Of a DNA stretch of 43,390 nucleotides, positions 1-32,861 are shown in pieces. This stretch comes from Micromonosporaceae bacterium (lineage in GTDB: Bacteria; Actinomycetota; Actinomycetes; Mycobacteriales; Micromonosporaceae): contig JBOGDG010000001.1 of the NCBI GenBank assembly GCA_050701655.1, positions 1 to 43,390 on the forward strand, written 5' to 3'. A model generated the notes under the pieces. That model was not told where the DNA came from. It saw nothing but the letters and a program-made list of their open reading frames with translations, and did no database searches. Positions within the stretch are counted from its first letter, which is position 1, and each line of letters starts with the position of its first letter. The translations under genes and the position numbers were made by a program.

Positions 1-267
1 GGTGCCGGCGATGCGCTCGCCGTCCGGGCCGGTGAGCAGCTGCCCGGTCGCCGCCGCCGCGAGCGCGGTCTGCCGGTCCATGGCGCGGGTGCCTTTCGGC
101 CCCAGCACCTCGCGGGCGCTGAATCCCGGCACCTCGCGGTCGGCGCCGGCGCTCCCGGCCTCCCGACCGCCGGCGACCACCCCGCTGTGTACGCCGGCGG
201 CGAAGTCCGCGCTGGTCAACCCGTACGGCGAGACCGCCGACCACCCGGAGATCACGGTACGAGTCAT
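1..267 (-). CDS. Ketosynthase-like partner subunit (KS-beta/chain-length-factor type), 5' part only; the gene runs off the left edge
   Basis: My own reverse translation from the ATG at 267-265 gives MTRTVISGWSAVSPYGLTSADFAAGVHSGVVAGG...GPKGTRAMDRQTALAAAATGQLL. This N-terminus is typical of the second KS-like subunit of discrete (type II) ketosynthase pairs. Its ATG overlaps the upstream KS stop (ATGA, 264-267). It is absent from the ORF track because it is open at the window edge. Confidence 0.6.
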   Translation of the reverse strand, partial: MTRTVISGWSAVSPYGLTSADFAAGVHSGVVAGGREAGSAGADREVPGFSAREVLGPKGTRAMDRQTALAAAATGQLLTGPDGERIAGT

Positions 268-1496
268 GCCCGGTCCTCGCATCGGCTCAGGATCAGCACA
301 GCGTTGTTGCCGCCGAACGCCAGCGCGTTGTTCTGCACCACCCGCAGGTCGGCCTCGACCGCCGTGTTCGGTACGCAGTCCACCGGGCACTCGGGGTCGG
401 TCTCGACGTGATTGATCGTCGGCGGGATGAAGCCGTGGGTGAGCGCCAGCGCGCAGCCGGCCGCGGCCAGTGCGCTCGCCGCGCCGAGGGCGTGCCCCAG
501 CATCGACTTCATCGACACCGTACGGGGCGGCGTGTCCCCGTACACCTGGCGGATGGCGCCCACCTCGACCACGTCGTTGGCCTTGGTGGCGGTGCCGTGC
601 GCGGAGATCAGGTCGACCTCGTCGGGGCTTACCCCGGCGTCCTGGAGCGCCGAGGCGATGCAGCGGGCGACGCTGTCCTGGTTCGGCGCCACCGGGTGGT
701 CGGCGTCGCAGTTGAGGCCGAACCCGGTCAGCTCGGCGTAGTTCCGGGCGCCGCGGGCCCGCGCCGACTCCAGCTCCTCGACCAGCAGCACCCCCGCGCC
801 CTCGCCGGTCAGCATGCCGCCGCGGTCCTTGTCGAACGGCTGGCACCGTTCGGGCGCCATCGCGCCCAGCCGGTAGAAGCCGGCGACCGTCTTGCGGCAC
901 AGCGCGTCGGCGCCGCCGCACACCGCGAAGCTGACCTCGCCGGCCCGGATCGCGTCGACCGCGTTGCCGATCGCGTAGTTGCCCGCCGCGCAGGCGGTGG
1001 GGATCGTGACCGCCTCGACGTCGGTGAGCCCCAGCTCGCGGGCGACCGCGGCGGAGAGTCGGCCGGCGCTGATCCGGCGGGCGATCGTGCGGTCGCGGCT
1101 GTCGGGGCCGCCGGTGACCTCCTGCTCCACCAGCCGGTCCAGCTCGCGGGTCTCGCCGTTGGTGGTGCCGATCGCGACCATGCCGCGCCGCCCGGCCAGC
1201 TCGGCGCCGCCCACCCCGGCATCGGTGAGCGCCATCCGGGCCCCGGCGACCGCGAACTGGCTGGCCCGGCCCAGCTCGCCGACGGGCAGCCGGGTGATCC
1301 ACGGCGCCGGGTCGAAGTCCACCACCTCGCAGGCGATGGAGTGCTCGTACCCGTCGGTAGGGAAGCCGGTGATCGGCTTCGCTCCGTTGCGGCCGGCGCG
1401 CAGCCCGGCGAGGAAGTCATCGGTACCGACGCCGATGCTGGAGATCACGCCGAGCCCGGTCACCACGACCCGGCGCGCTCGGTGTACGGCGGGCAT
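264..1496 (-). CDS. Beta-ketoacyl-ACP synthase (KAS I/II, FabF-like elongating ketosynthase)
   Basis: Part of ORF 264..1718(-). The likely start is the ATG at 1496 (MPAVHRARRVVVTGLGVISSIG). Motifs present: TACAAGN (active-site Cys), DADHPVAP and SAHGTATKAND (the two His), and a GFGGNNA-type C-terminus. It lies 5 nt downstream of the ACP gene. Confidence 0.9.
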   Translation of the reverse strand: MPAVHRARRVVVTGLGVISSIGVGTDDFLAGLRAGRNGAKPITGFPTDGYEHSIACEVVDFDPAPWITRLPVGELGRASQFAVAGARMALTDAGVGGAELAGRRGMVAIGTTNGETRELDRLVEQEVTGGPDSRDRTIARRISAGRLSAAVARELGLTDVEAVTIPTACAAGNYAIGNAVDAIRAGEVSFAVCGGADALCRKTVAGFYRLGAMAPERCQPFDKDRGGMLTGEGAGVLLVEELESARARGARNYAELTGFGLNCDADHPVAPNQDSVARCIASALQDAGVSPDEVDLISAHGTATKANDVVEVGAIRQVYGDTPPRTVSMKSMLGHALGAASALAAAGCALALTHGFIPPTINHVETDPECPVDCVPNTAVEADLRVVQNNALAFGGNNAVLILSRCEDRA

Positions 1497-1501: not shown

Positions 1502-1765
1502 TCAGCTGGCCTGCTCCCAGCCCGCGGCCTCGGCCACGACGGCGTACACCCCGGCGAGGTTGACCATGCGGACCAGGTTGGTCTCGTCGATCTTGATCTC
1601 GAAGGCCTGCTCCAGCCACGCCACGATCTCGACCATCGCCATCGAGTCGGCGCCGTGGTCTTCCCGGAACAGGCTTTCGTCGGTGAGCTCGTCCGGCTCG
1701 ATCTCCAGGACCTCGCACACGACGTCCCTGACCTGCTGCCTGCGATCCTCGATAGTCCCGGTCAC
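1502..1765 (-). CDS. Acyl carrier protein
   Basis: This is the C-terminal 87 aa of ORF 1502..2116(-): VTGTIEDRRQQVRDVVCEVLEIEPDELTDESLFREDHGADSMAMVEIVAWLEQAF. The D-S-M motif is the phosphopantetheine Ser. GTG start at 1765, preceded by GAAGGG. Confidence 0.85.
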   Translation of the reverse strand: MTGTIEDRRQQVRDVVCEVLEIEPDELTDESLFREDHGADSMAMVEIVAWLEQAFEIKIDETNLVRMVNLAGVYAVVAEAAGWEQAS

Positions 1766-1882: not shown

Positions 1883-1992
1883 CCGGTGTCGGGGCGGAGT
1901 CCTGGCATCTTCCTGCCAGCCGGGTCGGAGCGCGCCGGGATCCGGTGATGATGGGCGACAACCGCCCGCAATTAGGAGGCGCGAACAGCCGC

Positions 1993-3018
1993 ATGGAACC
2001 AGCGACCGGAACCCGGCCCCGTACCGAACGGCTGGCGTTGCTGGCCGCGGGCGTGACGGTGGTGCTCTGGGGGTCGGCGTTCGTATCGATCCGCAGCGCC
2101 GCCGCCAGCTACTCACCCGGTGCCCTCGCGCTGGGCCGGCTGCTGTTGGCCAGCGCGGTACTCGGCGTGATCGTGACTGTACGCCGCGAGGGCTGGCCGG
2201 TACGGGCCGCCTGGCCGGGGATCATCGGCTCCGGCGTGCTGTGGTTCGGCGTCTACATGGTGGCGCTGAACTGGGGCGAGCAGAGTGTCGACGCCGGCAC
2301 CGCCTCCATGGTGGTCGGCATCGGGCCGCTGCTGGTGGCGCTGCTCGCCGGCTGGCTGCTCAAGGAGGGGTTCAGCAGCCGGCTGCTGGCCGGTATTGCG
2401 GTGGCGTTCGCCGGTGTCGTACTGGTCGGCCTGTCGATGTCCGAGGGCGGCCGGTCGTCGGTGGTGGGCGTACTGCTCTGTGTGGTCGCCGCGGTGTCGC
2501 TGGCCGGCGGCGTGGTGGCGCAGAAGCCCGCGCTGCGGCACGGCTCGCCGTGGCAGATCACCACGTTCGGAGCGGTGGTCGGGGCGATCGCCTGCCTGCC
2601 GTTCTCCGGCTCGCTGCTGTCGGGCCTCGCCGAGGCGCCGCTGTCGGCCACCCTCAACATGGTCTACCTCGGGCTGTTCCCGACCGCGCTGGCGTTCACC
2701 ACCTGGGCATACGCGGTGACGCACAGCACCACCGGCAAGATGGCGGCGACCACGTACGCCATCCCCGCCGTCGCGGTGCTGCTCTCGTGGGCGTTCCTGG
2801 GTGAGGTGCCCGGCTCGCTCACGCTGCTCGGCGGTGCGTTGTGCGTCGCCGGGGTGGTGGTCGCCCAGGGCAGCGGCGCCCGCCCCGCGAAGCCCGCGAC
2901 CGAAGCGAGCGCGGCCGACGCGGGCCCCGGGGCCAAGCCAGACGCCGCGACCGAGGTGGAGGCCGAGGCCGGGCGGGTGCCCGACGAGTCCCCCGTGGTG
3001 GCGAAGGACCAGGCGTGA
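1993..3018 (+). CDS. EamA/DMT-family transporter (putative exporter)
   Basis: ORF 1945..3018. The protein has about ten hydrophobic helices and the N-terminal motif LWGSAFVSIR, typical of the EamA family. ATG 1993 is preceded by AGGAGG (1974-1979, 13-nt spacer). The alternative start GTG 1945 would place an in-frame TTA codon at 1972. The stop overlaps the next gene start (GTGA). Confidence 0.8.
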   Translation: MEPATGTRPRTERLALLAAGVTVVLWGSAFVSIRSAAASYSPGALALGRLLLASAVLGVIVTVRREGWPVRAAWPGIIGSGVLWFGVYMVALNWGEQSVDAGTASMVVGIGPLLVALLAGWLLKEGFSSRLLAGIAVAFAGVVLVGLSMSEGGRSSVVGVLLCVVAAVSLAGGVVAQKPALRHGSPWQITTFGAVVGAIACLPFSGSLLSGLAEAPLSATLNMVYLGLFPTALAFTTWAYAVTHSTTGKMAATTYAIPAVAVLLSWAFLGEVPGSLTLLGGALCVAGVVVAQGSGARPAKPATEASAADAGPGAKPDAATEVEAEAGRVPDESPVVAKDQA

Positions 3019-3866
3019 CCTCGGGGGTCGACGCGCGCTGGTTCCGGTACGAGGGCGGGGAGCCGACGGCCCCCGTACGGATCTTCTGCTTCCCCCACGG
3101 CGGCGGCGACCCCAGGGCGTACGCCGAGTGGCAGCCGCACCTGGACGGCACCGCCGACCTGCTGGCGGTACGGGTTCCCGGTCGGGGCTGCCGCGGCGAC
3201 GAGACCCCGCCGGGGAGCATCGCCGAGCTGGCCGACCAGGCGGCGGAGGCGGTTGCGGCGGCGGCGGACCGGCCGAGCTACCTGTTCGGGCACAGTCTCG
3301 GCGGGCTGGTGGGGTTCGAGGTAGCGCGCCGGCTGCGACACCTGCCGGAGCTGCGGCACCTGGTCGCCTCCGGCTGTGCCCCGCCGTCGCTGCTGCCCAC
3401 CGACTACCTGCGCTGGGCGGCGCAGCTCGACGGCCCCGCCTTCGCCCAGGCGATGGGGACCTTCGAGGGCATGTCGCCGGAGATCGTCGCGGATCCGGAG
3501 CTGCAGGAGCTGCTGCTGCCGGACCTGCGGACCGATTGCGTGCTGATCGCCGGGTACGCGTACCGGCCGGCGCCCCGGTTGGCGATCGGCCTCACGCTGG
3601 TCAACGGGCGGGATGACTGGCGGGTCGGCGACGACCTGCTCGGTCCGTGGCGCCACGAGGTGGTCGCCGAGCCGGCCCGGCACTGGCGCGACGGTGGCCA
3701 CTTCTACTTCGCCGACCGGCCCGCGGCGGTGCTCGACGTACTCCGCGCTCTGATCGCCGCCGACTCCGCCGGCCCCGGCACCGCCAAGGCCGACCCCGGC
3801 ACGGCCGAAGCCGACCCCGCCGGCGCAGGCACTTCCGAAGCCGACCACCACGTCGAGCTGATCTAG
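3015..3866 (+). CDS. Type II thioesterase (alpha/beta hydrolase)
   Basis: From ORF 2841..3866, with GTG 3015 overlapping the EamA stop. Motifs: IFCFPHGGGDPRAY, GHSLGG (nucleophile elbow) and a late GGHFY. These are typical of editing or releasing TEII enzymes in PKS/NRPS loci. Confidence 0.85.
   Translation: MTSGVDARWFRYEGGEPTAPVRIFCFPHGGGDPRAYAEWQPHLDGTADLLAVRVPGRGCRGDETPPGSIAELADQAAEAVAAAADRPSYLFGHSLGGLVGFEVARRLRHLPELRHLVASGCAPPSLLPTDYLRWAAQLDGPAFAQAMGTFEGMSPEIVADPELQELLLPDLRTDCVLIAGYAYRPAPRLAIGLTLVNGRDDWRVGDDLLGPWRHEVVAEPARHWRDGGHFYFADRPAAVLDVLRALIAADSAGPGTAKADPGTAEADPAGAGTSEADHHVELI
3773..3844 (+). repeat. Imperfect 21-nt tandem repeat in the 3' tail of the thioesterase gene
   Basis: The units are ccccggcaccgccaaggccga (3773-3793) and ccccggcacggccgaagccga (3794-3814), 18/21 identical. 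A longer third unit ends in gaagccga. The repeat encodes PGTAKAD/PGTAEAD/..GTSEAD. Confidence 0.7.
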
Positions 3867-3875: not shown

Positions 3876-4796
3876 ATGGACGGCGACCTCGGGCGACCGG
3901 TGTTCCTGACCACGCCGCGGTACGTGATCGGGGAGATCGAGGAGGACCATGCCGCGGTGGTCAACCTCGCCGAGCGGATCGCGGAGCTGCGGATCCTGCC
4001 GCGGGCCGACTTCTGGGGCTGGGGGAAGATCCGGCGTACTGGCAAGGACATCGCGGCGCTGGCGGTGGAGAGCGGCGCGGCGACGCTGCGCGCCGCGGGT
4101 GGCCCCGAAGTGGACGCGCTGGTGCTGTGCTCGAGCACCTTTCCGGAGGGTACGGGCAGCCACGGCACGCTGGCCCAGACGGTGCTCACGGGCCTGGGGC
4201 TCGACGACGTGGACTTCTTCGGCGTGACCCTGCACAGCTGCGCGAACCTGCTCTCCGGCGTCCAGACCGCCGACGCGATGGTGGCGAGCGGCCGCTACCG
4301 CAGCGTGCTCGTCATCGGCGCCGACCGGGTCACCGACGAACGGATCCGGATGGAGAAGTTCGCGCTGTTCAGCGACGGCGCCGCGAGCGCGCTGGTGACC
4401 GCCGACCAGGGCGACTTCGCGCTGGAGGGCTGTGCGGCGGCGCACAGCGTACGGGAGCTGGACTGGTCCAGCGAGATCAGCTCCGATCTGGCCCGCCGGG
4501 TCAACGAGCGGCTGCACAAGCGCACCGGCGTGGCGCTGGAGGAGGTTCGCGGGCTGCTGCACGCCAACATCTTCAAGCCGATCATCGTGCTCAAGGAGAT
4601 GCAGGCCGGCTTCACCGGCGCGCAGCTCTACACCGACAACATCGCCCGGCTCGGCCACTGCTTCGCCGCGGATCCGCTGATCAATCTAGTCGACCGGATG
4701 GCGGCCGGGGAGATCGAGGACGACGCCCACTACATGCTGGCGTCCAGCGTGCCGGGGATCCGGATCGCCGCCGTACTGAGGAAAGTGCCGCGATGA
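3876..4796 (+). CDS. KASIII (FabH)-like thiolase-fold enzyme
   Basis: ORF 3876..4796, with AGGAG 6 nt upstream of the ATG. FGVTLHSCANLLSGVQTADAMVASGRYRSVLVIGAD aligns by eye with the FabH Cys112 region. FSDGAASALV, LLHANIF (His) and ARLGHCFAADP (the FabH Asn position reads His) are also present. Confidence 0.75.
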   Translation: MDGDLGRPVFLTTPRYVIGEIEEDHAAVVNLAERIAELRILPRADFWGWGKIRRTGKDIAALAVESGAATLRAAGGPEVDALVLCSSTFPEGTGSHGTLAQTVLTGLGLDDVDFFGVTLHSCANLLSGVQTADAMVASGRYRSVLVIGADRVTDERIRMEKFALFSDGAASALVTADQGDFALEGCAAAHSVRELDWSSEISSDLARRVNERLHKRTGVALEEVRGLLHANIFKPIIVLKEMQAGFTGAQLYTDNIARLGHCFAADPLINLVDRMAAGEIEDDAHYMLASSVPGIRIAAVLRKVPR

Positions 4797-6946
4797 TGGC
4801 GCACGGCTTCACGCTTCCGGACACGCTGACCTGCTCGCCGCTGGCACGGTGGGAGTTCAGCCCCGCCACCCGCGACCGGGCGGCGGCGGTGCTCGCCGGC
4901 GGCCCGGAGGCGATCCTGGCGCACCTGCTCACCGACCAGGAGTCGGAGTCCTGCCTGCTCACCGCCAAAACGGTGGTCGACGCCTTCCTGGCCCAAGCAC
5001 CACCCGCCCCCGACGAGATCGTCGCTACGACCCGCGAGCAGCTGGTACGCCAGCTCGCCCCACTGACCACTCTGGAGCCCGAGCTGCGGGAGGCGGTGCT
5101 GCGGCAGCGCGCCCCGATCAGCCTGGCCGGCGGCTGCTGGCTGGACGTGGTCTCGCAGCCCGCCACCCAGCCGTCGGTGATCGTCAACGACCTGTTCCGG
5201 CAGCACTACCGGCTGAAGGGCGAGGGGAGCACCCAGCGCTCGGCGTACCACCGGCGGAAACGGACGCTTGAGGAGAACGGCGTCGAGCTGCCCGAGCTCA
5301 CCGCGAGCGACTTCGGGCGGCGGGCGCACACCCGGCCGCTGACCGCGCTGCACACCGTGTTCTACGTGGCGCTGTCGCGGCTGCCGGCCAGCTACCTCCC
5401 CGAGGTGATCGGGGTGCACTACGCGTTCCACGCGCTCGGGGTGGACGACCTGCTCACCGGTGACGACCCGGTGCTGGACCCGGACGAGCCGCGCGCCGTG
5501 CTGGACCGGTACCTGCTGCTGTGCGGGGACGCCGAGCGGCGCCGGCTGCACGCCGCCGTGGCGCTCACCACGCGGCTGGAGACCGAGCACGTCGCGCTGC
5601 TCACCGAGCTCGCCGACTGGTTCGCCGGGCTGTCGCGGGACGCGAAGGTCGCGGCGATCATCGCCCGGCACGCCCCGTACGCCGGGCGCCAGCACGGCCG
5701 GGTACGGGTCGGCGGCGAGCCGCTCACCGAGACGTTCGCCGACCCGGAGTTCGACCTGACCGCCTTCCTGATCCGGCTGCGCCGCTCCCGCCAGCTCAAG
5801 CCGCTGCCGTCCGGCGGGTGCCGGCTGCTGAACGCGATCCGGTTCGGGGGGCCGATGTTCGGCATCTTCGACGAGCGGGAGGCGGCGACGCTGCGGGAGT
5901 GGGTGGCGGCGGTGCAGGCGGGCAGCCCGGAGCCGACCGAGCTGCCGGTCAACAGGGTGGGCGACGAAGCGGCTCGCCACTGGTCCGACGCGATCGCCGG
6001 CTGCCGACCCGCGGGCGTGGCGTACGCCGATCCCGCGCACCACGACGAGCGCGAGCTGTTCTACCGGCTGGTCAACATCGAGCACTTCCCGAACACGCTC
6101 GCCCAGGCCCGGCACCGGGCCGAGACCGTGCTCGCCGACAGCGAGCTGCTGTTCGCGCACGGCGGCGACGGCGTCTACAGCGACGTCAGCTGGTTCGACT
6201 ACACCCCCGAGGCGCTGCTGGCCCGGGTCGACGACATCTACTGGGGCAAGCTGGTCGGGCCGTACCAGCCGCTCGCCGAGATCCCCGACCGGGACGAGGT
6301 GATCTTCGGGCAGACGCTGCTCGCGCTGGCGGCGCTGGTGGACGGCGCGTGGGCGTACCGGATCGGCAACCTGGGCCGCTACCAGCGGCGCAGCGACGGG
6401 CTGCTGCTCGGGGTGTACGCCGACGAGATGGGGCTCGGCGACGTACGCAAGAACCACATCACGCTGATCCGCCAGGTGCTCGACAACCTGGAGCTGCCGC
6501 TGCCACACATCCGCGACGCGGCGTTCCGCGACCAGGCCGAGCTGCCCGACACCACGTACGGGTATGCGCTGCACCAGCTGTGCCTCTCGCTGTCCCCCGA
6601 CACGCTCTACCAGGAGATCCTCGGCTTCAACCTGGGCATCGAGCTGTCCGGGCTGGGCCGGCAGCGGATGCACGAGGCCCAGAAGCTGCGCGCCCACGGG
6701 CTGGACACCACGTACGAGGACGTACACCTGTCGATCGACAACTTCTCCACCGGCCACGCCCGGCAGGCAGCCGACGCGATCGTGGTGTACCTCGACGACG
6801 TGGCGCGGGTCAGCGGCCCCGGCTCGGTGCAGGCCGAGTGGCGCCGGGTCTGGCGGGGCTACGCCAGCTTCGCGTTCTTCGCCGAGTACGAGCTGGTCAA
6901 GCGGCTCACCGAGAACGCCGGCGACGACGTCGAGCTGATGATCTGA
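4793..6946 (+). CDS. Tandem heme-oxygenase-like (iron-containing redox enzyme / HDO family) protein, 717 aa
   Basis: In-frame part of ORF 3647..6946, starting at ATG 4793 (ATGA overlap with the KASIII-like stop). The C-terminal half carries YADEMGLGDVRKNH (E-x9-H), GFNLGIELSG (E) and VHLSIDNFSTGH (H-x3-D-x5-H). This is the ligand pattern of the CADD/UndA/SznF-type diiron fold. The N-terminal half shows a weaker copy: KGEGSTQRSAYH, VIGVHYAFHALG and IARHAPYAGRQH. Confidence 0.6.
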   Translation: MMAHGFTLPDTLTCSPLARWEFSPATRDRAAAVLAGGPEAILAHLLTDQESESCLLTAKTVVDAFLAQAPPAPDEIVATTREQLVRQLAPLTTLEPELREAVLRQRAPISLAGGCWLDVVSQPATQPSVIVNDLFRQHYRLKGEGSTQRSAYHRRKRTLEENGVELPELTASDFGRRAHTRPLTALHTVFYVALSRLPASYLPEVIGVHYAFHALGVDDLLTGDDPVLDPDEPRAVLDRYLLLCGDAERRRLHAAVALTTRLETEHVALLTELADWFAGLSRDAKVAAIIARHAPYAGRQHGRVRVGGEPLTETFADPEFDLTAFLIRLRRSRQLKPLPSGGCRLLNAIRFGGPMFGIFDEREAATLREWVAAVQAGSPEPTELPVNRVGDEAARHWSDAIAGCRPAGVAYADPAHHDERELFYRLVNIEHFPNTLAQARHRAETVLADSELLFAHGGDGVYSDVSWFDYTPEALLARVDDIYWGKLVGPYQPLAEIPDRDEVIFGQTLLALAALVDGAWAYRIGNLGRYQRRSDGLLLGVYADEMGLGDVRKNHITLIRQVLDNLELPLPHIRDAAFRDQAELPDTTYGYALHQLCLSLSPDTLYQEILGFNLGIELSGLGRQRMHEAQKLRAHGLDTTYEDVHLSIDNFSTGHARQAADAIVVYLDDVARVSGPGSVQAEWRRVWRGYASFAFFAEYELVKRLTENAGDDVELMI

Positions 6947-8097
6947 TGCGTCACCTGGACGAGGCGATACTGCGGCTGCCGTTCTTCGCGCCGCGCCACC
7001 GCGAACTGGCCGAGAAGATCGACACCTGGTGTACGAAGCACGCGGCGCTCTGCCAGGGCCCGCACCCCGACGGCCCGCGCGCCCAGCAGCTGGCGATCCT
7101 GAGTACGCTCGGCGCCGACGGCTGGCTGGCGATGCTCGACACCTCGGGCGAAGCCCCGGAGCTGCGGTCGATCTGCCTGATGCGCGAGGCGCTGGCGTAC
7201 GCCGGGGACCTGGCCGACTACGCGTTCTCGATCCAGGCGCTGTCGGCCACACCGATCCAGCGGCACGGCACCGACCAGCAGCGGCGCCGCTACCTGCCGG
7301 GGCTCGCCGACGGCAGCCTGGTCGGGGCGTTCGCGGTCTCGGAGCACAACGCCGGCTCCGACCTCGCCGCGATCGCGCTGCGCGCGGAGCGTACCGGCGA
7401 CGGCTACCGGCTCACCGGGCACAAGGCGTGGATCGCCAACGGCGACATCGCCGACGTCATCTGCGTGGTGGCGCGCACCGGGGAGGGCCCCGGGGCGCTG
7501 GGGCTCACCGCGTTCCTGGTGCCGGCCGGCACCCCCGGATTCACCGTCGCCGAGCAGGTCGAGACACTGGCGCCCCGCGCTTTCGCGCAGCTGGAGTTCG
7601 ACGGCTGCGTGGTCGGCGAGGACGCGGTGCTCGGCCGCCCCGGCACTGGCTTCATCGTCGCGATGGAGCTGCTGGAGCGCTTCCGGATGACGGTCGGCGC
7701 GGCGGCGGTCGGCTTCGCCCGCCGGGCCGCCGAGGCCGCCCTGGCACACGCCCGCGGCCGTACGATCTACGGCGGCCGGCTGTTCGACCTGCCCACCGTC
7801 AAGGCGACGTTCGCCGACATCGAGCTGAAGCGCAACGCCGCCGCCCTGCTGGTGGCACGCGCCGCCTGGGAAGCCGACGAGCGTGGCGGGCGTACGGTGT
7901 CGAAGCACTCCAGCATCGCCAAGCTGTACGCCACCGAAGTCGCCCAGGAGATCGTGGACGCCTCGCTGCAGCTGTACGGCGCCGCCGGCCTGGTCAGCGG
8001 CAGCGTCACCGAGCGGCTCTACCGCGAGATCCGCTCGCTGCGGATCTACGAGGGCACCTCGGAGATCCAGAAGCAGATCATCGCCGGGTCCCTCTAA
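6946..8097 (+). CDS. Acyl-CoA (or acyl-ACP) dehydrogenase family flavoprotein
   Basis: In-frame part of ORF 5521..8097, starting at ATG 6946 (TGATG overlap with the previous stop). Motifs: AFAVSEHNAGSD, GYRLTGHKAWIANG and a C-terminal RIYEGTSEIQKQII carrying the catalytic Glu. Confidence 0.9.
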   Translation: MRHLDEAILRLPFFAPRHRELAEKIDTWCTKHAALCQGPHPDGPRAQQLAILSTLGADGWLAMLDTSGEAPELRSICLMREALAYAGDLADYAFSIQALSATPIQRHGTDQQRRRYLPGLADGSLVGAFAVSEHNAGSDLAAIALRAERTGDGYRLTGHKAWIANGDIADVICVVARTGEGPGALGLTAFLVPAGTPGFTVAEQVETLAPRAFAQLEFDGCVVGEDAVLGRPGTGFIVAMELLERFRMTVGAAAVGFARRAAEAALAHARGRTIYGGRLFDLPTVKATFADIELKRNAAALLVARAAWEADERGGRTVSKHSSIAKLYATEVAQEIVDASLQLYGAAGLVSGSVTERLYREIRSLRIYEGTSEIQKQIIAGSL

Positions 8098-14081: not shown

Positions 14082-14478
14082 GCACCTGGGGAGGCGAGAT
14101 GGCCAGCGTCGAATCGGCCTGGCTGGGACAAGGTCAGGTCTGCGCCGAGAAGGCCAACGCTTCGTCGACAGGCTCGGTCACTGCCCGCCGACGGCATCAT
14201 CCAACGACGTACTGCTCCCTAGCCGGTCGCGCCTGCCACCACGCTGCCTGGCGCGGCTGACGGCCGCCTCGCGCCCGTACCCTCGCATGCGGGCGCGGGG
14301 CGCTCACGTCGCGTCAGGGTCGAACAGCGTCGGTACGCACCCCCGGCAGGAGATCCTGCGTGCGCAATCTCCCTGAACTTCAGAGCCGAGCGCGAGGTCC
14401 GCCACGCCCGGCGATCCATGGCGCGCGCCGACACCGCCTCCCCGGGGTCACCGGCACATCAAGCCATCGGAGACAGCC

Positions 14479-16062
14479 ATGGCAAGCCCAGACCAGGGAC
14501 TACCCACCATCGGTCGCCGCCAGTTGCTCGGCGGCGTCGGCGCCGGTCTCGCCGGCGCTCTGCTGCTCACCGACGTCGAAGCCCTCGCCGCCGAGGTCGA
14601 GGGGCCCGTCGCTACTGCCGCACCCGACCCCCGGTTCAGCCGGATCTTCCAGCTGCCAGCCTTCGCGGACCCCACCTCTTCGGCGGTACGCAACGCCATG
14701 CTCGAGATCGGAAAACCGGGTGGCCTGCTGGACGCCAAGGACCCCTTGCAGGAGGGCCCCGTCCGGCTGATCACCAACCCGGAGCTCAGCCCCAACAACC
14801 GCGACCAGAATGTCGCCGACATGACCGCCGGGACCACCTTCGTGGGCCAGTTCCTGGACCACGACATCACTTTCGACCTCACGTCCCGGCTCGGTGTGGT
14901 CGCCGAGCCCACCCAGACCCGCAACGTGCGGGACGCCCGGTTGGAGCTCGACGCCGTGTACGGCGGCGGGCCCTCGGTCAGCCCGCAGCTCTACCAGTCG
15001 TCGGACCGCGCCAAGTTCCGGATCGAGAGCGGCGGGCGCTTCGAGGACCTGCCCCGCAACAGCAACGGCACCGCGATCATCGCGGATGAACGTAACGACG
15101 AGAACCTGATCATCAGCGGACTGCACGCCGCTTTTCTGCTCGCCCACAACCGGACCGTGGACCACCGGCGGCAGAACAACCTGCCGGGGGACGTCTGGTT
15201 CTACTCCCGGCGCACGATCATCCACCACTGGCAGTGGATCGTGGTGAATGAGTTCCTGCCGCAGTTCGTCGGCCGGGCGCTGGTCGACGACATCCTCCGC
15301 AACGGCCGGCGGTGGTACCGGTTCAGCCGGCCCACGGTGCCGGTGGAGTTCCAGACCGGCACGTACCGGTTCGGGCACAGCATGGTGCGGCCCTCGTACC
15401 GGGCGAACCTGCAAGGCGACCCCGGCGGCGATCCCAACACGGGAGCGCCGGCGTTCTTCGGGTTCATCTTCGACCCGGCGGGCGAGGGCCAGACCGACCC
15501 GGTCGACCTGCGCGGCGGTGCCCGGGCGCCGCGCCGGTTCATCGGCTGGCAGACCTTCTTCGACTTCGGCGGAGACAAGACCCAGCACGTACGCCCGAAC
15601 AAGCGGGTCGACACCCGCATCTCGACTGCGCTGTTCCGGCTGCCGCTGCGGACGATCCCGGGCAGCGAGCTGACGATAACCGCGCTGCCGCAGCGCAACC
15701 TGCTGCGGCACCTCACCTGGTCGCTACCGTCCGGGCAGCGGATCGCCGCGCACACCGGCACGCCGGTGCTCGGCTCCGGCTACTTCCCGGAGCTCAAGCC
15801 CTTCGGGCTCGGGCTGGAGGCCAGCACCCCGCTGTGGTACTACGTCCTGCGCGAGGCGGAGGTCTTCAACGACGGCCGGCGGCTCGGTCCGGTCGGCGGG
15901 CGCATCGTCGCGGAGACGATCCTGGGACTGCTGAAGCTCGACGAGTACTCGTACCTCAACACCGGGTTCCGGCCGTCCCTGCCGAGCCAGACCCCCGGCA
16001 CCTTCAAGATCACCGACCTGCTGCGCTGGGCACGGGTAGATCCCGCCAGCCGCGGTCAATAA
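14479..16062 (+). CDS. Heme peroxidase (animal-heme-peroxidase superfamily) with twin-arginine signal peptide
   Basis: ORF 14479..16062. The N-terminus reads GRRQLLGGVGAGLAGALLL (Tat motif). The distal-His block is FVGQFLDHDITFD and the proximal-His block is TYRFGHSMVRPSY. Confidence 0.85.
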   Translation: MASPDQGLPTIGRRQLLGGVGAGLAGALLLTDVEALAAEVEGPVATAAPDPRFSRIFQLPAFADPTSSAVRNAMLEIGKPGGLLDAKDPLQEGPVRLITNPELSPNNRDQNVADMTAGTTFVGQFLDHDITFDLTSRLGVVAEPTQTRNVRDARLELDAVYGGGPSVSPQLYQSSDRAKFRIESGGRFEDLPRNSNGTAIIADERNDENLIISGLHAAFLLAHNRTVDHRRQNNLPGDVWFYSRRTIIHHWQWIVVNEFLPQFVGRALVDDILRNGRRWYRFSRPTVPVEFQTGTYRFGHSMVRPSYRANLQGDPGGDPNTGAPAFFGFIFDPAGEGQTDPVDLRGGARAPRRFIGWQTFFDFGGDKTQHVRPNKRVDTRISTALFRLPLRTIPGSELTITALPQRNLLRHLTWSLPSGQRIAAHTGTPVLGSGYFPELKPFGLGLEASTPLWYYVLREAEVFNDGRRLGPVGGRIVAETILGLLKLDEYSYLNTGFRPSLPSQTPGTFKITDLLRWARVDPASRGQ

Positions 16063-16076
16063 CTTCAGGCCAGCAC

Positions 16077-16104
16077 GGGGGTGCGCCCGCCCGGGCGCAC
16101 CCCC
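16077..16104. terminator. GC-rich palindromic hairpin between the convergent peroxidase and ArsR-like genes
   Basis: gggggtgcgcccgcccgggcgcaccccc has perfectly complementary 11-13-nt arms. It starts 15 nt after the peroxidase TAA. There is no U-tract, as is usual in high-GC actinomycetes. Because it is palindromic it could act in both directions. Confidence 0.5.
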
Positions 16105-16115
16105 ACTATCGGTGT

Positions 16116-16167
16116 CGCTGGAGCTCGGGCGGCACCCCGACAAGACCTCCGCCGGTACGGCGCTGCT
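16116..16167 (+). repeat. Copy 2 (intergenic) of the GH89-derived 52-nt segment
   Basis: cgctggagctcgggcggcaccccgacaagacctccgccggtacggcgctgct. It lies between the hairpin (16077-16104) and the ArsR-like stop (16192-16194). Confidence 0.9.
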
Positions 16168-16191
16168 ACGGCCCCGGCGGGTTGAGCGCGG

Positions 16192-16890
16192 TCAACTGCC
16201 CGCTTGCAGGCGTACGCAGCAGTGATCCGGCGTGGGGTCGAGCCGGGCACGCAGGCCGGTGGTGGCGAGGCCGTCCAGCAGCCCGCCGAGCAGGCATAGA
16301 TTCATGCCGCAGACCAGCTCGGTGTGCTGGTGCGCCAGGGTGTGGAAGGGGCAGTTGCCCAGCACCACGTCGGTGTTCTCGATGCGTGGTTCGAAGCCGT
16401 GCTCCTCCAGCACCCGCAGCACAGTGTCTCGGCCCTGGGCGGCGTCGTGTCCGGCGGTCGCCGCCTCGCCGAGCCGCTGTCCCAGCTCACGCGCGCGGCG
16501 GTGCAGCACGGTCCGCGGCGACTCGCTCGACTCGTCCGCCTCCTCGACGGCGGCGGCCAGCAGCCGTCCCGCGAGGTCGTACCGGCGTTCCGGGACCGAC
16601 ACGGCGACCTGCCGCCGCGACCGGTGGTACAGCTTCGCCGGCCGTCCCGCGCCCGGACCGGTGCGGCCGCTCAGTCGCTGGTACGCCACGTCGAGCAGCC
16701 CGACCTTCACCAGCTGGTCGAGGTGGAACGCCGCCGTCGTACGGGGGAGTCCCAGCGCGGCGGCCGCCTCGTCGCGGCTGACCGGCGTGGGCTGGCGCAC
16801 CACGTGGTCGTACACCCGGCGCCGGGTCGGCTCGTCGAGCGCCGCGACAGCGGCGACGCCCCACTCCCGAGCTTCGTCCACAGCGTTCAT
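16192..16890 (-). CDS. ArsR-like winged-helix transcriptional regulator with a C-terminal Cys/His cluster
   Basis: ORF 16192..16905(-), with probable start MNAVDEA at 16890. The HTH reads RRRVYDHVVRQPTPVSRDEAAAALGLPRTTAAFHLDQLVKVGLL, followed by GRPAKLY. The C-terminus reads GNCPFHTLAHQHTELVCGMNLC. Confidence 0.8.
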   Translation of the reverse strand: MNAVDEAREWGVAAVAALDEPTRRRVYDHVVRQPTPVSRDEAAAALGLPRTTAAFHLDQLVKVGLLDVAYQRLSGRTGPGAGRPAKLYHRSRRQVAVSVPERRYDLAGRLLAAAVEEADESSESPRTVLHRRARELGQRLGEAATAGHDAAQGRDTVLRVLEEHGFEPRIENTDVVLGNCPFHTLAHQHTELVCGMNLCLLGGLLDGLATTGLRARLDPTPDHCCVRLQAGS

Positions 16891-16967
16891 TCTAAAAACC
16901 ACCAAGGTTGACTGAAGAGAGTCTCACCTCTAACGTTAACCCATGTTGGTGTTAGAAGGAGGGCCAG

Positions 16968-17612
16968 ATGAGCGCCGTTCGTAGCGAGTTCGGGTTGTAC
17001 GAGGGCCCTGACCCGCAAGCCCCGCCTCGGCGACTGAAGGTGGTCCACGACCGGGAGGACATCGATCTGCCCGCCGCGGAGCGTGCGATCGCCGACCTGC
17101 TCGTGGCCCTGGGCCGCGATCCGTCCTCCGAGCGCCTGGCCGACACTCCGCGGCGGGTGGCCCGCTCGTACGCCGAGCTGCTCACGCCGCGGGAGTTCAG
17201 CCTCACCACGTTCCCGAACGACGAGGGCTACGACGAGCTGGTGCTGGCCAAGAGCATCCCGGTGCAGTCGTTGTGCCAGCACCATCTGCTGCCGTTTCAC
17301 GGCGTCGCGCACGTCGGTTACCTGCCCGGCGCACGGATCCTCGGGTTGTCGAAGCTGGCTCGGGTGGTCGAGCTGTTCGCCCGGGACCTGCAGGTCCAGG
17401 AACGGCTGACCAAACAGGTCGCCGACTGGCTGCAGGAGCACCTGGCGCCGAAGGGTGTCGGGGTGGTCATCGAAGCCGAGCACATGTGCATGTCGCTGCG
17501 CGGGGTGCAGGCCACCGGCGCCCGTACGGTGACCTCGGCGCTGCAGGGCGTACTCCGTCAGGACCCCCGTTCCCGGCAGGAGTTCTTCTCCCTGGCGGGT
17601 GTCGGCGGCTGA
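16968..17612 (+). CDS. folE: GTP cyclohydrolase I
   Basis: ORF 16968..17612, with GAAGGAGGG just upstream. The diagnostic block is SLCQHHLLPFHGVAHVGYLPGARILGLSKLARVVELFARDLQVQERLT. EAEHMCMSLRG is also present. Confidence 0.95.
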   Translation: MSAVRSEFGLYEGPDPQAPPRRLKVVHDREDIDLPAAERAIADLLVALGRDPSSERLADTPRRVARSYAELLTPREFSLTTFPNDEGYDELVLAKSIPVQSLCQHHLLPFHGVAHVGYLPGARILGLSKLARVVELFARDLQVQERLTKQVADWLQEHLAPKGVGVVIEAEHMCMSLRGVQATGARTVTSALQGVLRQDPRSRQEFFSLAGVGG

Positions 17613-17654
17613 GGCCTGACGAGACCCCTCTACCACAAATCGAACGGAGGAGCG

Positions 17655-18893
17655 ATGGAGATCGATCAGACCTTCGTGGTCGTCGGCGCCAGCCTGACCG
17701 GCGCCAAGGCGGCGCAGACTCTGCGCGAGGAGGGGTTCACCGGCAGAGTGGTCCTCGTCGGCGAGGAGCCTGAGCGGCCGTACGAAAGGCCTCCGCTTTC
17801 CAAGGGCTACCTGCTCGGCAAAGACGACAGGGCCAAGCTCTACGTGCACGACGAGGGCTGGTACGACAAACACTCCGTGGAGCTGCTGCTCGGCCGCCGT
17901 GTCACCGGCGTCGACCGCGCCGCACACCACGTACAACTCGATGACGGCGAGTCGATCGGCTACAGCAAGGTGATGCTCGCGACCGGCGCCTCACCGCGAC
18001 GGCTCGACGTGCCCGGCGCCGACCTCGACGGGGTCTGCTACCTGCGCCGGGTCGAGGATTCCGATCGACTCGCCGACGCGATCCGCGGCGGCGGCCGGGT
18101 CGCCGTCATCGGCGCCGGCTGGATCGGGCTGGAGACCGCGGCGGCGGCCCGGTCGTACGGCTGCGACGTGACCGTCATCGAGCCGCGGCCCGCGCCGCTG
18201 CAGGCCGCACTGGGCCCCGAGATGGGCGGCTTCTTCGCACAGCTCCACCGCCAGCACGGCGTAGACCTACGGCTCGGTCGCGGCGTGTCGGAGATCCGGG
18301 GCGACGGGGGCAGGGTCGCCGCTGTGCGGACCGACGACGGAGCCGAAATCCCCGCCGAGGTCGTGATCGTGGGAGTAGGGATCCGACCCAACACCGCACT
18401 CGCCGAACGGGCCGGTCTGCGGGTCGACAACGGTGTCCTGGCCGACCAGTCGCTGCGTACCGACGACCCCGACGTCTACGCCGCGGGGGACGTCGCCAAC
18501 GCCTGGCACCCGCGCTACGGGCAACGCGTCCGCGTGGAGCACTGGGCCAACGCCCTCAACGGCGGACCCGCCGCGGCCAGGGCGATGCTCGGCCAGCACG
18601 TGATCTACGACCGGATCCCGTACTTCTTCACCGACCAGTACGACATCGGGATGGAGTTCGCCGGCTGGTTCCCGCCCGGCGGGTACGACACCGTACTCAC
18701 CCGTGGGGATGTCGACGGCAAGGCGTTCTACGCGTTCTGGCTGGCCGGCGAGCGGGTGGTGGCCGGGATGCACGTCAACCTCTGGGACGACGGCATCGAG
18801 CCGGTGCAGCGGTTGATCCGTTCCACCCGTCCGGTGGACCGCAATCGACTCACCGACCCGTCGGCGCCCCTCGCCGAACTCGCCGAGGCGTGA
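17655..18893 (+). CDS. FAD-dependent pyridine-nucleotide-disulfide oxidoreductase (ferredoxin/rubredoxin reductase type)
   Basis: ORF 17655..18893. Motifs: VVVGASLTGAKAAQTLR, ERPPLSKGYL, VAVIGAGWIGLETAA and YAAGDVA. The C-terminal dimerisation region is typical of ferredoxin reductases. Confidence 0.9.
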   Translation: MEIDQTFVVVGASLTGAKAAQTLREEGFTGRVVLVGEEPERPYERPPLSKGYLLGKDDRAKLYVHDEGWYDKHSVELLLGRRVTGVDRAAHHVQLDDGESIGYSKVMLATGASPRRLDVPGADLDGVCYLRRVEDSDRLADAIRGGGRVAVIGAGWIGLETAAAARSYGCDVTVIEPRPAPLQAALGPEMGGFFAQLHRQHGVDLRLGRGVSEIRGDGGRVAAVRTDDGAEIPAEVVIVGVGIRPNTALAERAGLRVDNGVLADQSLRTDDPDVYAAGDVANAWHPRYGQRVRVEHWANALNGGPAAARAMLGQHVIYDRIPYFFTDQYDIGMEFAGWFPPGGYDTVLTRGDVDGKAFYAFWLAGERVVAGMHVNLWDDGIEPVQRLIRSTRPVDRNRLTDPSAPLAELAEA

Positions 18894-23416: not shown

Positions 23417-23448
23417 TTTTGGATGTACGCCACCGGAGGGAGCCCACA

Positions 23449-24813
23449 GTGCGGCACACCGAGGGGATGCTCACCGTCGAACAGCTACGCGCGCTGATCG
23501 AGGAGGGGCGCGTCGACACCGTGCTGCTGGCCCTTCCCGACATGCAGGGCCGGCTGCAGGGAAAGCGGCTGTCCGCGGAGTACTTCCTCGAGGAGGTGCT
23601 CGACCACGGTGCCGAGGCGTGCAACTACCTGCTCGCCGTGGACGTCGACATGAACACCGTCGACGGGTACGAGATCTCGTCCTGGGAACGCGGGTACGGC
23701 GACTTCGTACTCAAGCCCGACCTGTCCACGCTGCGGATGGTGCCCTGGCAGCAGGGCACGGTGCTGCTGATCGCCGACGTGCAGTGGGAGGACGGCGCGC
23801 CCGTACCGCCGGCGCCCCGACACGTGCTGCGCCGCCAGTTGGAGCGGCTCGCCGAGCGGGGCCTGAAGGCGTACGCCGGCACCGAGCTGGAGTTCATGCT
23901 GTTCCGGGACAGCTACGAGTCGGCGTGGCGCAGCGGTTACCGGGAGCTGCAGCCAGCGAACGACTACAACGTCGACTACTCGCTGCTCGGCACCGCCCGG
24001 GTGGAGCCGCTGCTTCGCCGGATCCGCAACGCGATGACCGGCGCCGGCCTGTACGTCGAGTCCGCCAAGGGTGAGTGCAACCTCGGCCAGCACGAGATCG
24101 CCTTCCGGTACGACGAGGCGCTCACCACCTGCGACAACCACGTGATCTACAAGACCGGCTCCAAGGAGATCGCCGCCGAAGAGGGCATGAGCCTGACCTT
24201 CATGGCGAAGTACGACCAGCGGGAAGGCAACTCCTGCCACATCCACCTGAGCCTGCGCTCCACCGACGGTGAGGCGGTGCTCGCCGGGGACCGCCCGTAC
24301 GGGTTCTCGCCGCTGATGGAGCACTTCGTCGCCGGTCAGCTGGCCTGCGTACGGGAGCTGACGCTGCTGTTCGCGCCGAACATCAACTCGTACAAGCGGT
24401 TCCAGGCGGGCAGCTTCGCGCCGACCGCGGTCGCCTGGGGGCCGGACAACCGGACCTGCGCGATGCGGGTGGTCGGGCACGGTCACGGCCTGCGGGTGGA
24501 GAACCGGGTGCCCGGCGGGGACGTGAACCCGTACCTGGCGATCGCGGGGATGATCGCCGCCGGCCTGTACGGCATCGAGCACGAGCTGCCGCTGGAGCCG
24601 GCGTTCAGCGGGAACGCGTACCAGGCGGACAAGCCGCGGGTGCCGACCACCCTCGCCGAGGCGGCGGAGCTGTTCGCCGAGAGCAAGGTGGCCCAGGCGG
24701 CGCTCGGAGACGACGTGGTGGAGCACTACCTGAACGCGGCCCGGATCGAGACCGAGGCGTTCCAGTCCACGGTCACCGACTGGGAGCGGTACCGGGGGTT
24801 CGAGCGGCTGTGA
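23449..24813 (+). CDS. Glutamine-synthetase-family gamma-glutamyl ligase (GlnA4-like, putative gamma-glutamylethanolamide synthetase)
   Basis: ORF 23419..24813, with GTG 23449 preceded by GGAGGGAG. GS type I-like blocks are present: GTELEFMLF, AKGECNLGQHEI, NSCHIHLSL, NSYKRF and NRTCAMRV. The substrate assignment rests on the neighbouring genes only. Confidence 0.8.
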   Translation: MRHTEGMLTVEQLRALIEEGRVDTVLLALPDMQGRLQGKRLSAEYFLEEVLDHGAEACNYLLAVDVDMNTVDGYEISSWERGYGDFVLKPDLSTLRMVPWQQGTVLLIADVQWEDGAPVPPAPRHVLRRQLERLAERGLKAYAGTELEFMLFRDSYESAWRSGYRELQPANDYNVDYSLLGTARVEPLLRRIRNAMTGAGLYVESAKGECNLGQHEIAFRYDEALTTCDNHVIYKTGSKEIAAEEGMSLTFMAKYDQREGNSCHIHLSLRSTDGEAVLAGDRPYGFSPLMEHFVAGQLACVRELTLLFAPNINSYKRFQAGSFAPTAVAWGPDNRTCAMRVVGHGHGLRVENRVPGGDVNPYLAIAGMIAAGLYGIEHELPLEPAFSGNAYQADKPRVPTTLAEAAELFAESKVAQAALGDDVVEHYLNAARIETEAFQSTVTDWERYRGFERL

Positions 24814-25517
24814 GCAGGCCCATCATCGGCATCAGTACCTACTCCGAAGAGGCCCGCTGGGGGGTGTGGTCGCGTCCCGCGGCGCTACTGCCACGCCGCT
24901 ACCTGGACGCCGTGGTGGCCGCCGGTGGGGTGCCGGTGCTGCTGCCGCCACAGGCCGCGGCGCCCGAGGTGGTGACCGCCGTCGACGCGCTGCTGCTCGC
25001 CGGGGGATCCGACCTCGATCCGTCCACGTACGGCGGCGCCCGGCATCCGGCGCTGGGACCGACGTACCCGGAGCGGGACGCCGCCGAGCTGGCGCTGCTG
25101 ACCGCCGCGCTCGACGCCGGCAAGCCGGTGCTCGGGGTCTGCCGCGGGATGCAGCTGCTCAACATCGCGTTCGGCGGCGGGCTGGACCAGCACCTGCCCG
25201 ACGTGGCCGGGCACACCGCGCACCAGCCGGCCCCTGCCCGCTTCGGCACCACGGCGGTACGGGTCCGCCCGGCCAGCCGCCTCGCGGGAATCGTGGGCAC
25301 GGAGCTGACCGTGCCCTGCTACCACCACCAGGCGGTACGCGGCATCGGCGCCGGCCTGCTCCCCGCCGCGTGGGCGGCCGACGAGACGGTCGAGGCGATC
25401 GAGTACCCCGGCGGGCAGTACGTGCTGGGCGTGCAGTGGCACCCCGAAGAGGGCACCGACGCGCGACTGTTCGCCGCCCTGGTGGAAGCCGCCGAGAAGG
25501 AGTTGGCACACCGATGA
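24810..25517 (+). CDS. Gamma-glutamyl hydrolase, peptidase C26 / class I glutamine amidotransferase-like (PuuD-like)
   Basis: ORF 24810..25517, with a GTGA overlap onto the previous stop. GVCRGMQLLN carries the nucleophile Cys. VQWHPE carries the catalytic His. Confidence 0.85.
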   Translation: MSRPIIGISTYSEEARWGVWSRPAALLPRRYLDAVVAAGGVPVLLPPQAAAPEVVTAVDALLLAGGSDLDPSTYGGARHPALGPTYPERDAAELALLTAALDAGKPVLGVCRGMQLLNIAFGGGLDQHLPDVAGHTAHQPAPARFGTTAVRVRPASRLAGIVGTELTVPCYHHQAVRGIGAGLLPAAWAADETVEAIEYPGGQYVLGVQWHPEEGTDARLFAALVEAAEKELAHR

Positions 25518-26875: not shown

Positions 26876-26877
26876 GC

Positions 26878-27642: not shown

Positions 27643-27651
27643 CCTGCGGTC

Positions 27652-28389: not shown

Positions 28390-28458
28390 CAGTGGTGGGG
28401 TGGCCCGCCCGGGGTGGCGCGAGGCGGTGAAGAAAAATTGCGGACTATTGCGGCCAAC

Positions 28459-28474
28459 TGGTACTCCTCTTACG
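28459..28474. promoter_or_regulatory. Candidate operator TGGTACTCCTCTTACG upstream of the ABC transporter operon
   Basis: It shares TGGT-N3/4-CTCTTA with 23401-23416. It sits in an AT-richer patch next to a direct repeat ATTGCGG x2 (28439-28456). Confidence 0.2.
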
Positions 28475-28523
28475 CTGTGCCCAGCGGTCTTGATCACCCT
28501 CCACGAGAGAGGAATCGAGCACC

Positions 28524-29607: not shown

Positions 29608-29615
<8 letters not shown>
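28524..29615 (+). CDS. ABC transporter ATP-binding protein 1 (MalK/UgpC-like)
   Basis: ORF 28524..29615, TTG start. Walker A is GPTMAGKTT, the signature is LSGGQQQR and Walker B is LLLDEP. It has a C-terminal regulatory-type domain. Confidence 0.85.
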
Positions 29616-31697
<2,082 letters not shown>

Positions 31698-31703
31698 GCG
31701 GCG

Positions 31704-32549
<846 letters not shown>

Positions 32550-32551
32550 CC

Positions 32552-32827: not shown

Positions 32828-32861
32828 CATGCGCACGACGTCACGCCGAGAGGAGTCACAG

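Follow-up and report, generated by a model that had tools for sequence, protein, structure and literature searches.

What is the function of a protein in which two heme-oxygenase-like (HO-like) domains appear to be fused, only one of them with a complete metal site? This question was raised by a first-pass annotation of a 43,390-nucleotide stretch of DNA from a Micromonosporaceae bacterium (contig JBOGDG010000001.1 of assembly GCA_050701655.1; the whole stretch is hereafter called the window), in which the gene at 4793..6946 on the + strand was read as encoding such a protein of 717 aa. Our computational analysis indicates that the protein is a member of the AzsE/ThzE/NngH/GvgC family, in which it lies in a separate clade, and that this family, already on record as a candidate oxidase, consists of proteins of approximately 700–790 residues that originated when a heme-oxygenase-like diiron oxidase (HDO) domain was duplicated in tandem. 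As the best explanation, and one that we hold with fair though not full assurance, we propose that the window protein is a duplicated AzsE-family HDO that oxidizes the nitrogen of a hydrazone or hydrazine, probably to a diazo group, within an orphan biosynthetic gene cluster.

Translation of the open reading frame 4793..6946 (+) gave 717 aa free of stops, and all of the motifs quoted previously were found in it. The window has a G+C content of approximately 70%, and the frame of this gene and of its neighbours was backed by third-position G+C. The ATG at 4793, preceded at a distance of 8 nt by the Shine–Dalgarno-like sequence GAGGAAAG, overlaps the TGA (4794–4796) of an upstream gene for a protein resembling β-ketoacyl-acyl carrier protein synthase III (KASIII-like) in the arrangement ATGA, while the TGA of the HDO gene (6944–6946) overlaps the ATG (6946–6948) of an acyl-CoA dehydrogenase (ACAD) gene in the arrangement TGATG; the start of the ACAD gene is therefore at 6946 and not at 6943. 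Because of these start/stop overlaps, the translational coupling of the HDO gene to both neighbours, as first proposed, is real. The assignment of 4793..6946 (+) to a two-domain AzsE-family HDO is based on this translation, on the homologues and on the AlphaFold (AF2) model described below, and the protein has a pseudo-HDO domain at its N-terminus and a diiron HDO domain at its C-terminus, joined by a linker that is specific to the family.

The catalytic HDO domain was located in the C-terminal half (approximately residues 409–709; 6017..6919, + strand) from its Pfam match, its conserved ligands and the spacing of these ligands in ThzE. PF14518 (Haem_oxygenas_2) matched residues 515–687 (E 1.8e-14; 54.4 bits against a gathering cut-off of 28.9), and all 54 homologues examined matched this model once apiece. 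Three motifs supply the ligands, namely, YADEMGLGDVRKNH with E545 and H555, GFNLGIELSG with E617, and VHLSIDNFSTGH with H645, D649 and H655. These six residues were invariant in the alignment of the 54 full-length homologues (54–71% identity), in all of which the residue at D517 was Asp or Glu (Glu in six), and all seven ligands were invariant in 35/35 members of a diverse set that included 34 further relatives at 21–51% identity. The full ligand set claimed for this half is thus kept across both close and distant relatives. The full-length AF2 model (pLDDT 87.7, pTM 0.89) was searched with Foldseek, and the best PDB matches were the HDO N-oxygenases HrmI, SznF, FlcD and RohS, with BesC, UndA and TenA below them (UndA and BesC at ranks 31–46); the match probabilities for HrmI, SznF, FlcD, RohS, BesC and UndA ranged from 0.44 to 1.0, those of the N-oxygenases being approximately 1.0. 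Sequence searches of the PDB with the protein, the full-length profile or the N-terminal-half profile gave no meaningful match, the best results being unrelated proteins at an E of approximately 0.4–1 and a 34-residue match to 9pfw. In the predicted structure, the C-terminal half adopts the HO-like helical fold, and from the conserved residues the C-terminal copy is predicted to be the catalytic O2-activating domain, with a seven-residue carboxylate/histidine site.

The N-terminal half contains a degenerate HO-like domain (approximately residues 40–278; 4910..5626, + strand), as indicated by profile–profile alignment, a hidden Markov model (HMM) of the C-terminal half, the ligand columns and Foldseek. 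Alignment of residues 1–420 with residues 421–717 by hhalign gave a probability of 88.6%, an E of 2.6e-6 and a score of 51.6 over 233 columns, against scores of 14–26 and E values of 0.014–0.5 for reversed or block-shuffled controls. The HMM built from C-terminal halves only found a second match in the N-terminal half of 54/54 proteins, which in the window protein covered residues 76–217 at 44.7 bits. In single distant relatives, BLASTP aligned the N-terminal half with the C-terminal half of the same protein at E values from 1e-46 to 1e-8, the best case reaching approximately 30% identity across approximately 280 residues; the two halves of the window protein gave no BLASTP match (E 0.26). When the N-terminal-half profile was searched against 1.84 billion representatives, two matches were detected in most of the 629 representative clusters, the best sometimes being the C-terminal half. 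Modelled alone, the N-terminal half had a pLDDT of 88.3, and Foldseek of this isolated model retrieved SznF, RohS (template-modelling score 0.56), FlcD, HrmI, TenA, AetD, a CADD-like protein and PqqC, with probabilities from 0.51 (PqqC) up to approximately 1.0 (SznF, RohS, FlcD and HrmI). The reading of the protein as two fused HO-like domains is upheld by these four lines of evidence, each independent of the others, and the suggested structure prediction and Foldseek search recovered SznF, RohS, FlcD and HrmI even with the N-terminal half alone. On the other hand, two PF14518 matches had been expected, and Pfam and NCBIfam scans detected no second HDO match in the N-terminal half of any of the 54 homologues; therefore, the duplication is visible only with profile or structure methods.

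The ligand columns of the N-terminal copy are degenerate throughout the family. In the register of the HMM, L141, A151 and H213 stand opposite E545, H555 and E617, and a counterpart of the H-x3-D-x5-H helix was absent from, or unalignable in, the profile alignments. Three echoes of the ligand motifs had been pointed out in this half: KGEGSTQRSAYH (residues 142–153), VIGVHYAFHALG (205–216) and IARHAPYAGRQH (290–301). For the first of these, the region was right but the register was wrong: G143 and G145 stand opposite G547 and G549, which places the ligand positions at L141 and A151 rather than at E144 and H153, two residues that are themselves poorly conserved (35/54 and 25/54 homologues). The replacement of Glu by His in the second motif was recovered as H213 opposite E617, although this His is present in just 33 of the 54. 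The third motif, likened to H-x3-D-x5-H, does not correspond to it and falls within a segment specific to the family, past the part of the HO-like core that could be aligned. The profile alignments thus ruled out the original register for the first and third motifs. More of the ancestral ligands survive in some distant members: the N-terminal half of one of them (P0172) has E, H, Y, H, D and P at the six ligand positions, a set that, at the level of sequence, is consistent with the progressive decay of a once-active N-terminal copy. We conclude that the N-terminal half is a pseudo-enzyme domain, which has retained the fold and lost the ligands. Most plausibly, it packs on the active domain to form an intramolecular pseudo-dimer, and it may also offer a docking surface for the substrate or a carrier protein.

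Between the two copies lies the family-specific segment (approximately residues 282–375; 5636..5917, + strand), defined by conservation across the 35 diverse members, with H301, S332, G353-x-M355, E363 and W370 kept family-wide. The only residues outside the metal site that were invariant in this set are E204, G207, R251, H301, S332, G353, M355 and W370, and most of them fall within this segment. The invariance of H301, S332, the GGPMF loop and W370 spans relatives from Actinobacteria to low-G+C and possibly proteobacterial organisms. The loop GGPMFGIF (residues 352–359; 5846–5869) was invariant in the 54 close homologues, and in the diverse set G353, M355, F356 and F359 were kept in 31–35 of the 35 members, G353 and M355 being invariant. 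This loop, which may act as a mobile lid or in binding, had the lowest confidence in both AlphaFold models (pLDDT below 50 at residues 352–357).

A word-indexed search found more than 500 full-length relatives, and the 629 representative clusters from the profile search are defined at 50% identity. The tandem arrangement with one degenerate site, at first called unusual, is the rule across these clusters. The gene azsE of the azaserine producer Streptomyces fragilis was described as encoding an "iron-containing redox enzyme" with an HO-like domain only at residues 528–706, and AzsE and the cytochrome P450 AzsG were proposed for the last oxidation to the diazo group (PMC10445470). ThzE is the only candidate oxidase for the N–N group in the thrazarine cluster and was proposed as a diazo-forming oxidase, which would need a four-electron oxidation (PMC12376268). 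NngH was reported, from a knockout, to be required for N-nitroglycine production (PMC13274452), and GvgC, reported to be 27% identical to AzsE, is needed for 4-formylaminooxyvinylglycine. The oxidation of a hydrazone to a diazo group has been shown for the ferritin-like Dob3 in a 2026 Nature paper, which is the only demonstrated case, and the azaserine oxidoreductase was there called still unidentified (PMC13061610). In the accessible literature, we found no description of the N-terminal part of AzsE-type proteins as a degenerate HDO copy, or of a "tandem HDO". The nearest proxy for AzsE (WP_108953665.1) in our set was the protein at the AzsE position of locus L001 (P0039), which is 56% identical to the window protein over 99% of the query.

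Both genes coupled to the HDO gene have counterparts in the azaserine pathway. The KASIII-like protein (306 aa; 3876..4796, + strand) matched Pfam ACP_syn_III and was 52% identical to the product of the AzsD-position gene of L001, and the ACAD (383 aa; 6946..8097, + strand) matched the N, M and C domains of Pfam Acyl-CoA_dh and was 62% identical to the product of the AzsF-position gene; synteny identifies them as homologues of AzsD/Tri13 and AzsF/Tri22, respectively. In a comparison with Escherichia coli FabH that is indicative only, the active-site Cys is kept in the KASIII-like protein as well as in its L001, L003 and L005 homologues, and in 4/4 of them a His (GHCFAA) occupies the position of the catalytic Asn. 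On sequence grounds, this His fits an acyl-transferase rather than a condensing role. In the azaserine pathway, AzsD, a KASIII-like homologue of Tri13, moves the hydrazonoacetyl group between carrier proteins, and AzsF, an ACAD homologous to Tri22, converts the hydrazinoacetyl-carrier protein to the hydrazone (PMC10445470). By synteny, therefore, the KASIII-like protein of the window is a putative hydrazonoacetyl transferase between carrier proteins, and the ACAD a putative enzyme for the conversion of the hydrazinoacetyl- to the hydrazonoacetyl-carrier protein.

The same association was observed across genomes. We tabulated 89 sequences, namely, the window and 88 fetched loci, a few of which are redundant: 54 were azaserine-like, 15 were of a polyketide synthase (PKS) type, nine had a non-ribosomal peptide synthetase (NRPS) only and nine were too truncated to classify, while L087 and L088 duplicate PKS-type loci. 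The triad of KASIII-like, HDO and ACAD genes, together with markers of the hydrazinoacetate pathway, was found in essentially all of the 80 genome loci. L001 follows the azaserine cluster in gene order from azsB to azsN (PMC10445470), as does the neighbourhood in Streptomyces sp. 11x1, which consists of genes for a thioesterase, an isocitrate-lyase-like protein, the KASIII-like protein, the HDO, the ACAD and a P450, followed by two saccharopine-dehydrogenase-like proteins, an ATP-grasp protein, a major facilitator superfamily transporter, lysine N-hydroxylase, a DAO protein and a cupin/methionyl-tRNA synthetase (MetRS) protein. The closest homologues of the window protein (66–70% identity) occur in the same gene arrangement as in the window, and in a neighbour-joining tree the HDOs of PKS-type clusters formed one clade with the window protein inside it. 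Culturable strains carrying this cluster type include Actinomadura spongiicola, A. rudentiformis, Spirillospora spp. and Actinophytocola xinjiangensis. The full PKS-type cluster was seen on extension leftward from a GNAT anchor in A. spongiicola and a soil contig (L087 and L088), where the genes encode, in order, lysine N-hydroxylase, a stand-alone cupin, the DAO protein, a MetRS-like protein with a carrier domain, an NRPS module of condensation, adenylation and thiolation domains (C-A-T), an AMP-ligase, a carrier protein, the GNAT, a C45 peptidase and a 278-aa protein; then, on the opposite strand, a ketoreductase (KR), chain-length factor (CLF), ketosynthase (KS) and acyl carrier protein (ACP); and lastly an EamA protein, a thioesterase, the KASIII-like protein, the HDO and the ACAD.

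Three details of these loci are recorded here as separate observations. In the PKS-type clusters (L087:1437-4842 and L088:1448-4909), the hydrazine synthetase is split into a cupin of 112–115 aa and a MetRS-like protein of approximately 660 aa with a C-terminal carrier domain, the DAO gene lying between the two; in azaserine-type loci (L003), a single fusion protein contains both parts. The conserved protein of approximately 278 aa was present between the C45 peptidase and KR genes in every PKS-type cluster examined (L005:2895-3731, L087:11656-12489 and L088:11677-12513) and had no Pfam match. In Kitasatospora aureofaciens ATCC 10762, a triacsin producer (L076, NZ_JPRF03000045.1), an AzsE-family gene stands at a contig end, followed by genes for an ACAD, a P450, saccharopine-dehydrogenase-like proteins, an ATP-grasp protein, lysine N-hydroxylase and a DAO protein, in an azaserine-like arrangement.

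By analogy with these relatives, the cluster appears to be of an orphan type in which an NRPS and a type II PKS are joined to the hydrazinoacetate pathway. The complete relatives suggest that it makes hydrazinoacetic acid and loads it on a carrier protein. The ACAD would dehydrogenate the carrier-bound hydrazinoacetyl unit to the hydrazone, the KASIII-like protein would pass the hydrazonoacetyl unit onward, and the NRPS module and the type II KS/CLF/KR/ACP set would elaborate it. The HDO would most likely perform an O2-dependent N-oxidation of the hydrazone, or of the hydrazine, giving either a diazo group (by two-electron oxidation, or by N-hydroxylation and then dehydration) or a further N-oxygenated group. 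We infer the role in hydrazone N-oxidation from the conserved, coupled linkage to the hydrazone-making enzymes, the structural likeness to N-oxygenases and the genetics of related pathways.

Several points weigh against this assignment. Hydrazone oxidation was undetected with recombinant AzsE or AzsG (Shikai et al., PMC10445470), and in vitro reconstitution has succeeded for no member of the family (AzsE, ThzE, NngH or GvgC) (PMC10445470, PMC13061610). The azaserine cluster also holds a P450 candidate (PMC10445470); no P450 was found within the stretches of the PKS-type cluster that were seen, which favours the HDO as the oxidase but proves nothing. The GvgC pathway forms an N–O and not an N–N bond, and the chemistry of the family may be N-oxygenation in general. 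Finally, the left part of the window cluster is missing, and its hydrazinoacetate genes are inferred from relatives at 59–70% identity.

The alternative that survives best, with perhaps one chance in a few of being right, is that the HDO could be a general N-oxygenase acting on an amine or another nitrogen, for example by N-hydroxylation of an NRPS-loaded amino acid or by GvgC-like formation of an N–O bond. Its closest structures, HrmI, SznF, RohS and FlcD, oxygenate amine or guanidine nitrogen, GvgC is needed for an aminooxy compound, and the PKS-type clusters carry the extra C-A-T module. Against this stand the 80 loci with tight linkage to hydrazone-making genes, the HDO gene lying between the transferase and dehydrogenase genes and being coupled to both, and the position of ThzE as the sole N–N oxidase candidate in its cluster. 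Far less probable is an HDO of the UndA/BesC type acting on a fatty-acyl or polyketide chain, with oxidative decarboxylation or C–C cleavage leading to a terminal alkene or related product. The presence of KS, CLF, KR, ACP, thioesterase and ACAD genes would suit it, as would the occurrence of UndA and BesC among the Foldseek matches of the full model, but these two rank far under HrmI, SznF, FlcD and RohS. The KASIII-like and ACAD genes are syntenic with those for AzsD/Tri13 and AzsF/Tri22, whose substrates are hydrazino- and hydrazonoacetyl thioesters on carrier proteins. Azaserine-type clusters without any PKS have the same gene triad, and hydrazinoacetate-pathway genes are found at nearly every locus. 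We therefore rejected a fatty-acid or olefin-forming (UndA-like) role on gene context, and the acyl-ACP or acyl-CoA substrate implied by the first-pass annotation is unlikely, the neighbours being AzsD/Tri13 and AzsF/Tri22 homologues and not fatty-acid genes. Least probable of all is that both halves are active, the N-terminal half binding metal through non-canonical residues (e.g. H187, E204, H209, E263, H266, H293 and H301) for two successive oxidations, as might suit the four-electron oxidation proposed for ThzE: these residues are invariant or nearly so in the 54 close homologues, but only E204 and H301 are conserved in the diverse family (with free variation at H187, H209, H213, E263, H266 and H293), hydrophobic residues (L141 and A151) occupy the canonical ligand positions, E204 matches E608 of the active half, which is not among the published ligands, and a second, non-canonical metal site was rejected on this lack of family-wide conservation.

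Returning to the oxidation of a hydrazone or hydrazine nitrogen, AzsE-type proteins are the leading candidates, yet their reconstitution has failed so far. Two features offer handles for construct design, mutagenesis and structure work: the internal duplication of the HDO throughout the family, with one of the copies dead, and the invariance of H301, S332, the GGPMF loop and W370, which do not belong to the metal site. The window protein further points to a distinct clade that goes with an orphan type of cluster, whose product is possibly a new diazo or other N–N metabolite. More tentatively, and as an idea that we think rather unlikely to hold in full, the N-terminal copy and the segment with H301, S332, the GGPMF loop and W370 might together form a recognition module that docks or gates the carrier-protein-tethered hydrazonoacetyl intermediate; in that case, the family would represent the missing non-ferritin oxidase for the hydrazone-to-diazo step, acting on the assembly line, and the clade of the window protein would install the diazo group on a hybrid peptide–polyketide new as a natural product.

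The cluster occupies the left 8.1 kb of the window, which holds its right end only. On the − strand, the window start cuts a CLF-like KS beta, of which an N-terminal fragment remains (1..267; identified by translation and by synteny with L005, L087 and L088), and this is followed by a type II KS alpha of 410 aa with the active-site Cys (TACAAG) and the N and C domains of Pfam ketoacyl-synt (264..1496), and by an ACP of 87 aa with a GADSM phosphopantetheine site (1502..1765; Pfam PP-binding, E 2.1e-13). On the + strand, an EamA/DMT-family transporter, a probable exporter (1945..3018; Pfam EamA, E 1.4e-38), which holds the same position in L005, L006, L087 and L088, precedes a type II thioesterase at the AzsB position (3015..3866; Pfam Thioesterase, E 2.9e-38); the GTG start of the latter overlaps the EamA stop (GTGA at 3015), indicating coupled genes. 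The rest of the window contains unrelated primary metabolism genes and regulators. An animal-haem-peroxidase-like protein (14377..16062) is followed by a divergently transcribed helix-turn-helix regulator, GTP cyclohydrolase I (16956..17612) and a ferredoxin-reductase-like flavoprotein (17613..18893), and this grouping (14377–18893) is unusual. An apparent gamma-glutamyl-polyamine utilization operon (23419–34649), seemingly ordinary primary metabolism, encodes a glutamine-synthetase-like protein, a C26 peptidase, an aldehyde dehydrogenase, a short-chain dehydrogenase/reductase and a GntR regulator, together with an ABC transporter made up of two ATPases, two permeases and a binding protein of 606 aa.

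Compared with known systems, the window protein most resembles AzsE, ThzE and NngH, which are likewise of approximately 720–780 aa, match PF14518 only in the C-terminal part (residues 528–706 in AzsE and 515–687 in the window protein) and are embedded in a hydrazinoacetate pathway. For ThzE, a site of D575, E603, H613, E675, H703, D707 and H713 has been predicted (PMC12376268), and its spacings of 28, 10, 62, 28, 4 and 6 are those of D517 to H655 in the window protein. The gene is placed between the KASIII-like transferase and ACAD genes, as in azs-type clusters, whereas thz-type clusters are without an AzsF homologue. The window protein differs from azaserine-type members in sequence (approximately 55% identity) and belongs to a separate clade, and its cluster type, unlike that of azaserine, has the type II KS/CLF/KR/ACP set and the C-A-T NRPS module but is without the NRPS of cyclization, adenylation and carrier-protein domains (Cy-A-CP) and the P450, isocitrate-lyase-like and saccharopine-dehydrogenase genes.

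The central domain of SznF, HrmI, RohS and FlcD share with the window protein the HO-like fold, the His3/carboxylate diiron site and an extra carboxylate from an auxiliary helix, and they are the best structural matches to both of its halves. These enzymes have a single HDO domain (with a cupin in SznF), whereas the window protein adds the ligand-less HDO copy and a 90-residue invariant segment. The cluster of Dob3 from Nocardia ninae resembles that of the window in its upstream hydrazone-forming logic and in the extension of a hydrazonoacetyl unit by a PKS, although this PKS is of type I and that of the window cluster is a type II set (PMC13061610). Dob3 itself is an O2-dependent diiron enzyme (PMC13061610), but it is ferritin-like, of the AurF/CmlI type, with a fold unrelated to that of the window HDO, and any reaction common to the two would be convergent. 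The ligand arrangement had been assigned to a CADD/UndA/SznF/BesC class, and of this the general arrangement and the HO-like fold are indeed common to all; however, UndA, BesC and CADD, which catalyse C–C cleavage or p-aminobenzoate synthesis, are weaker structural matches than the N-oxygenases, are single-domain proteins and occur in other genomic contexts.

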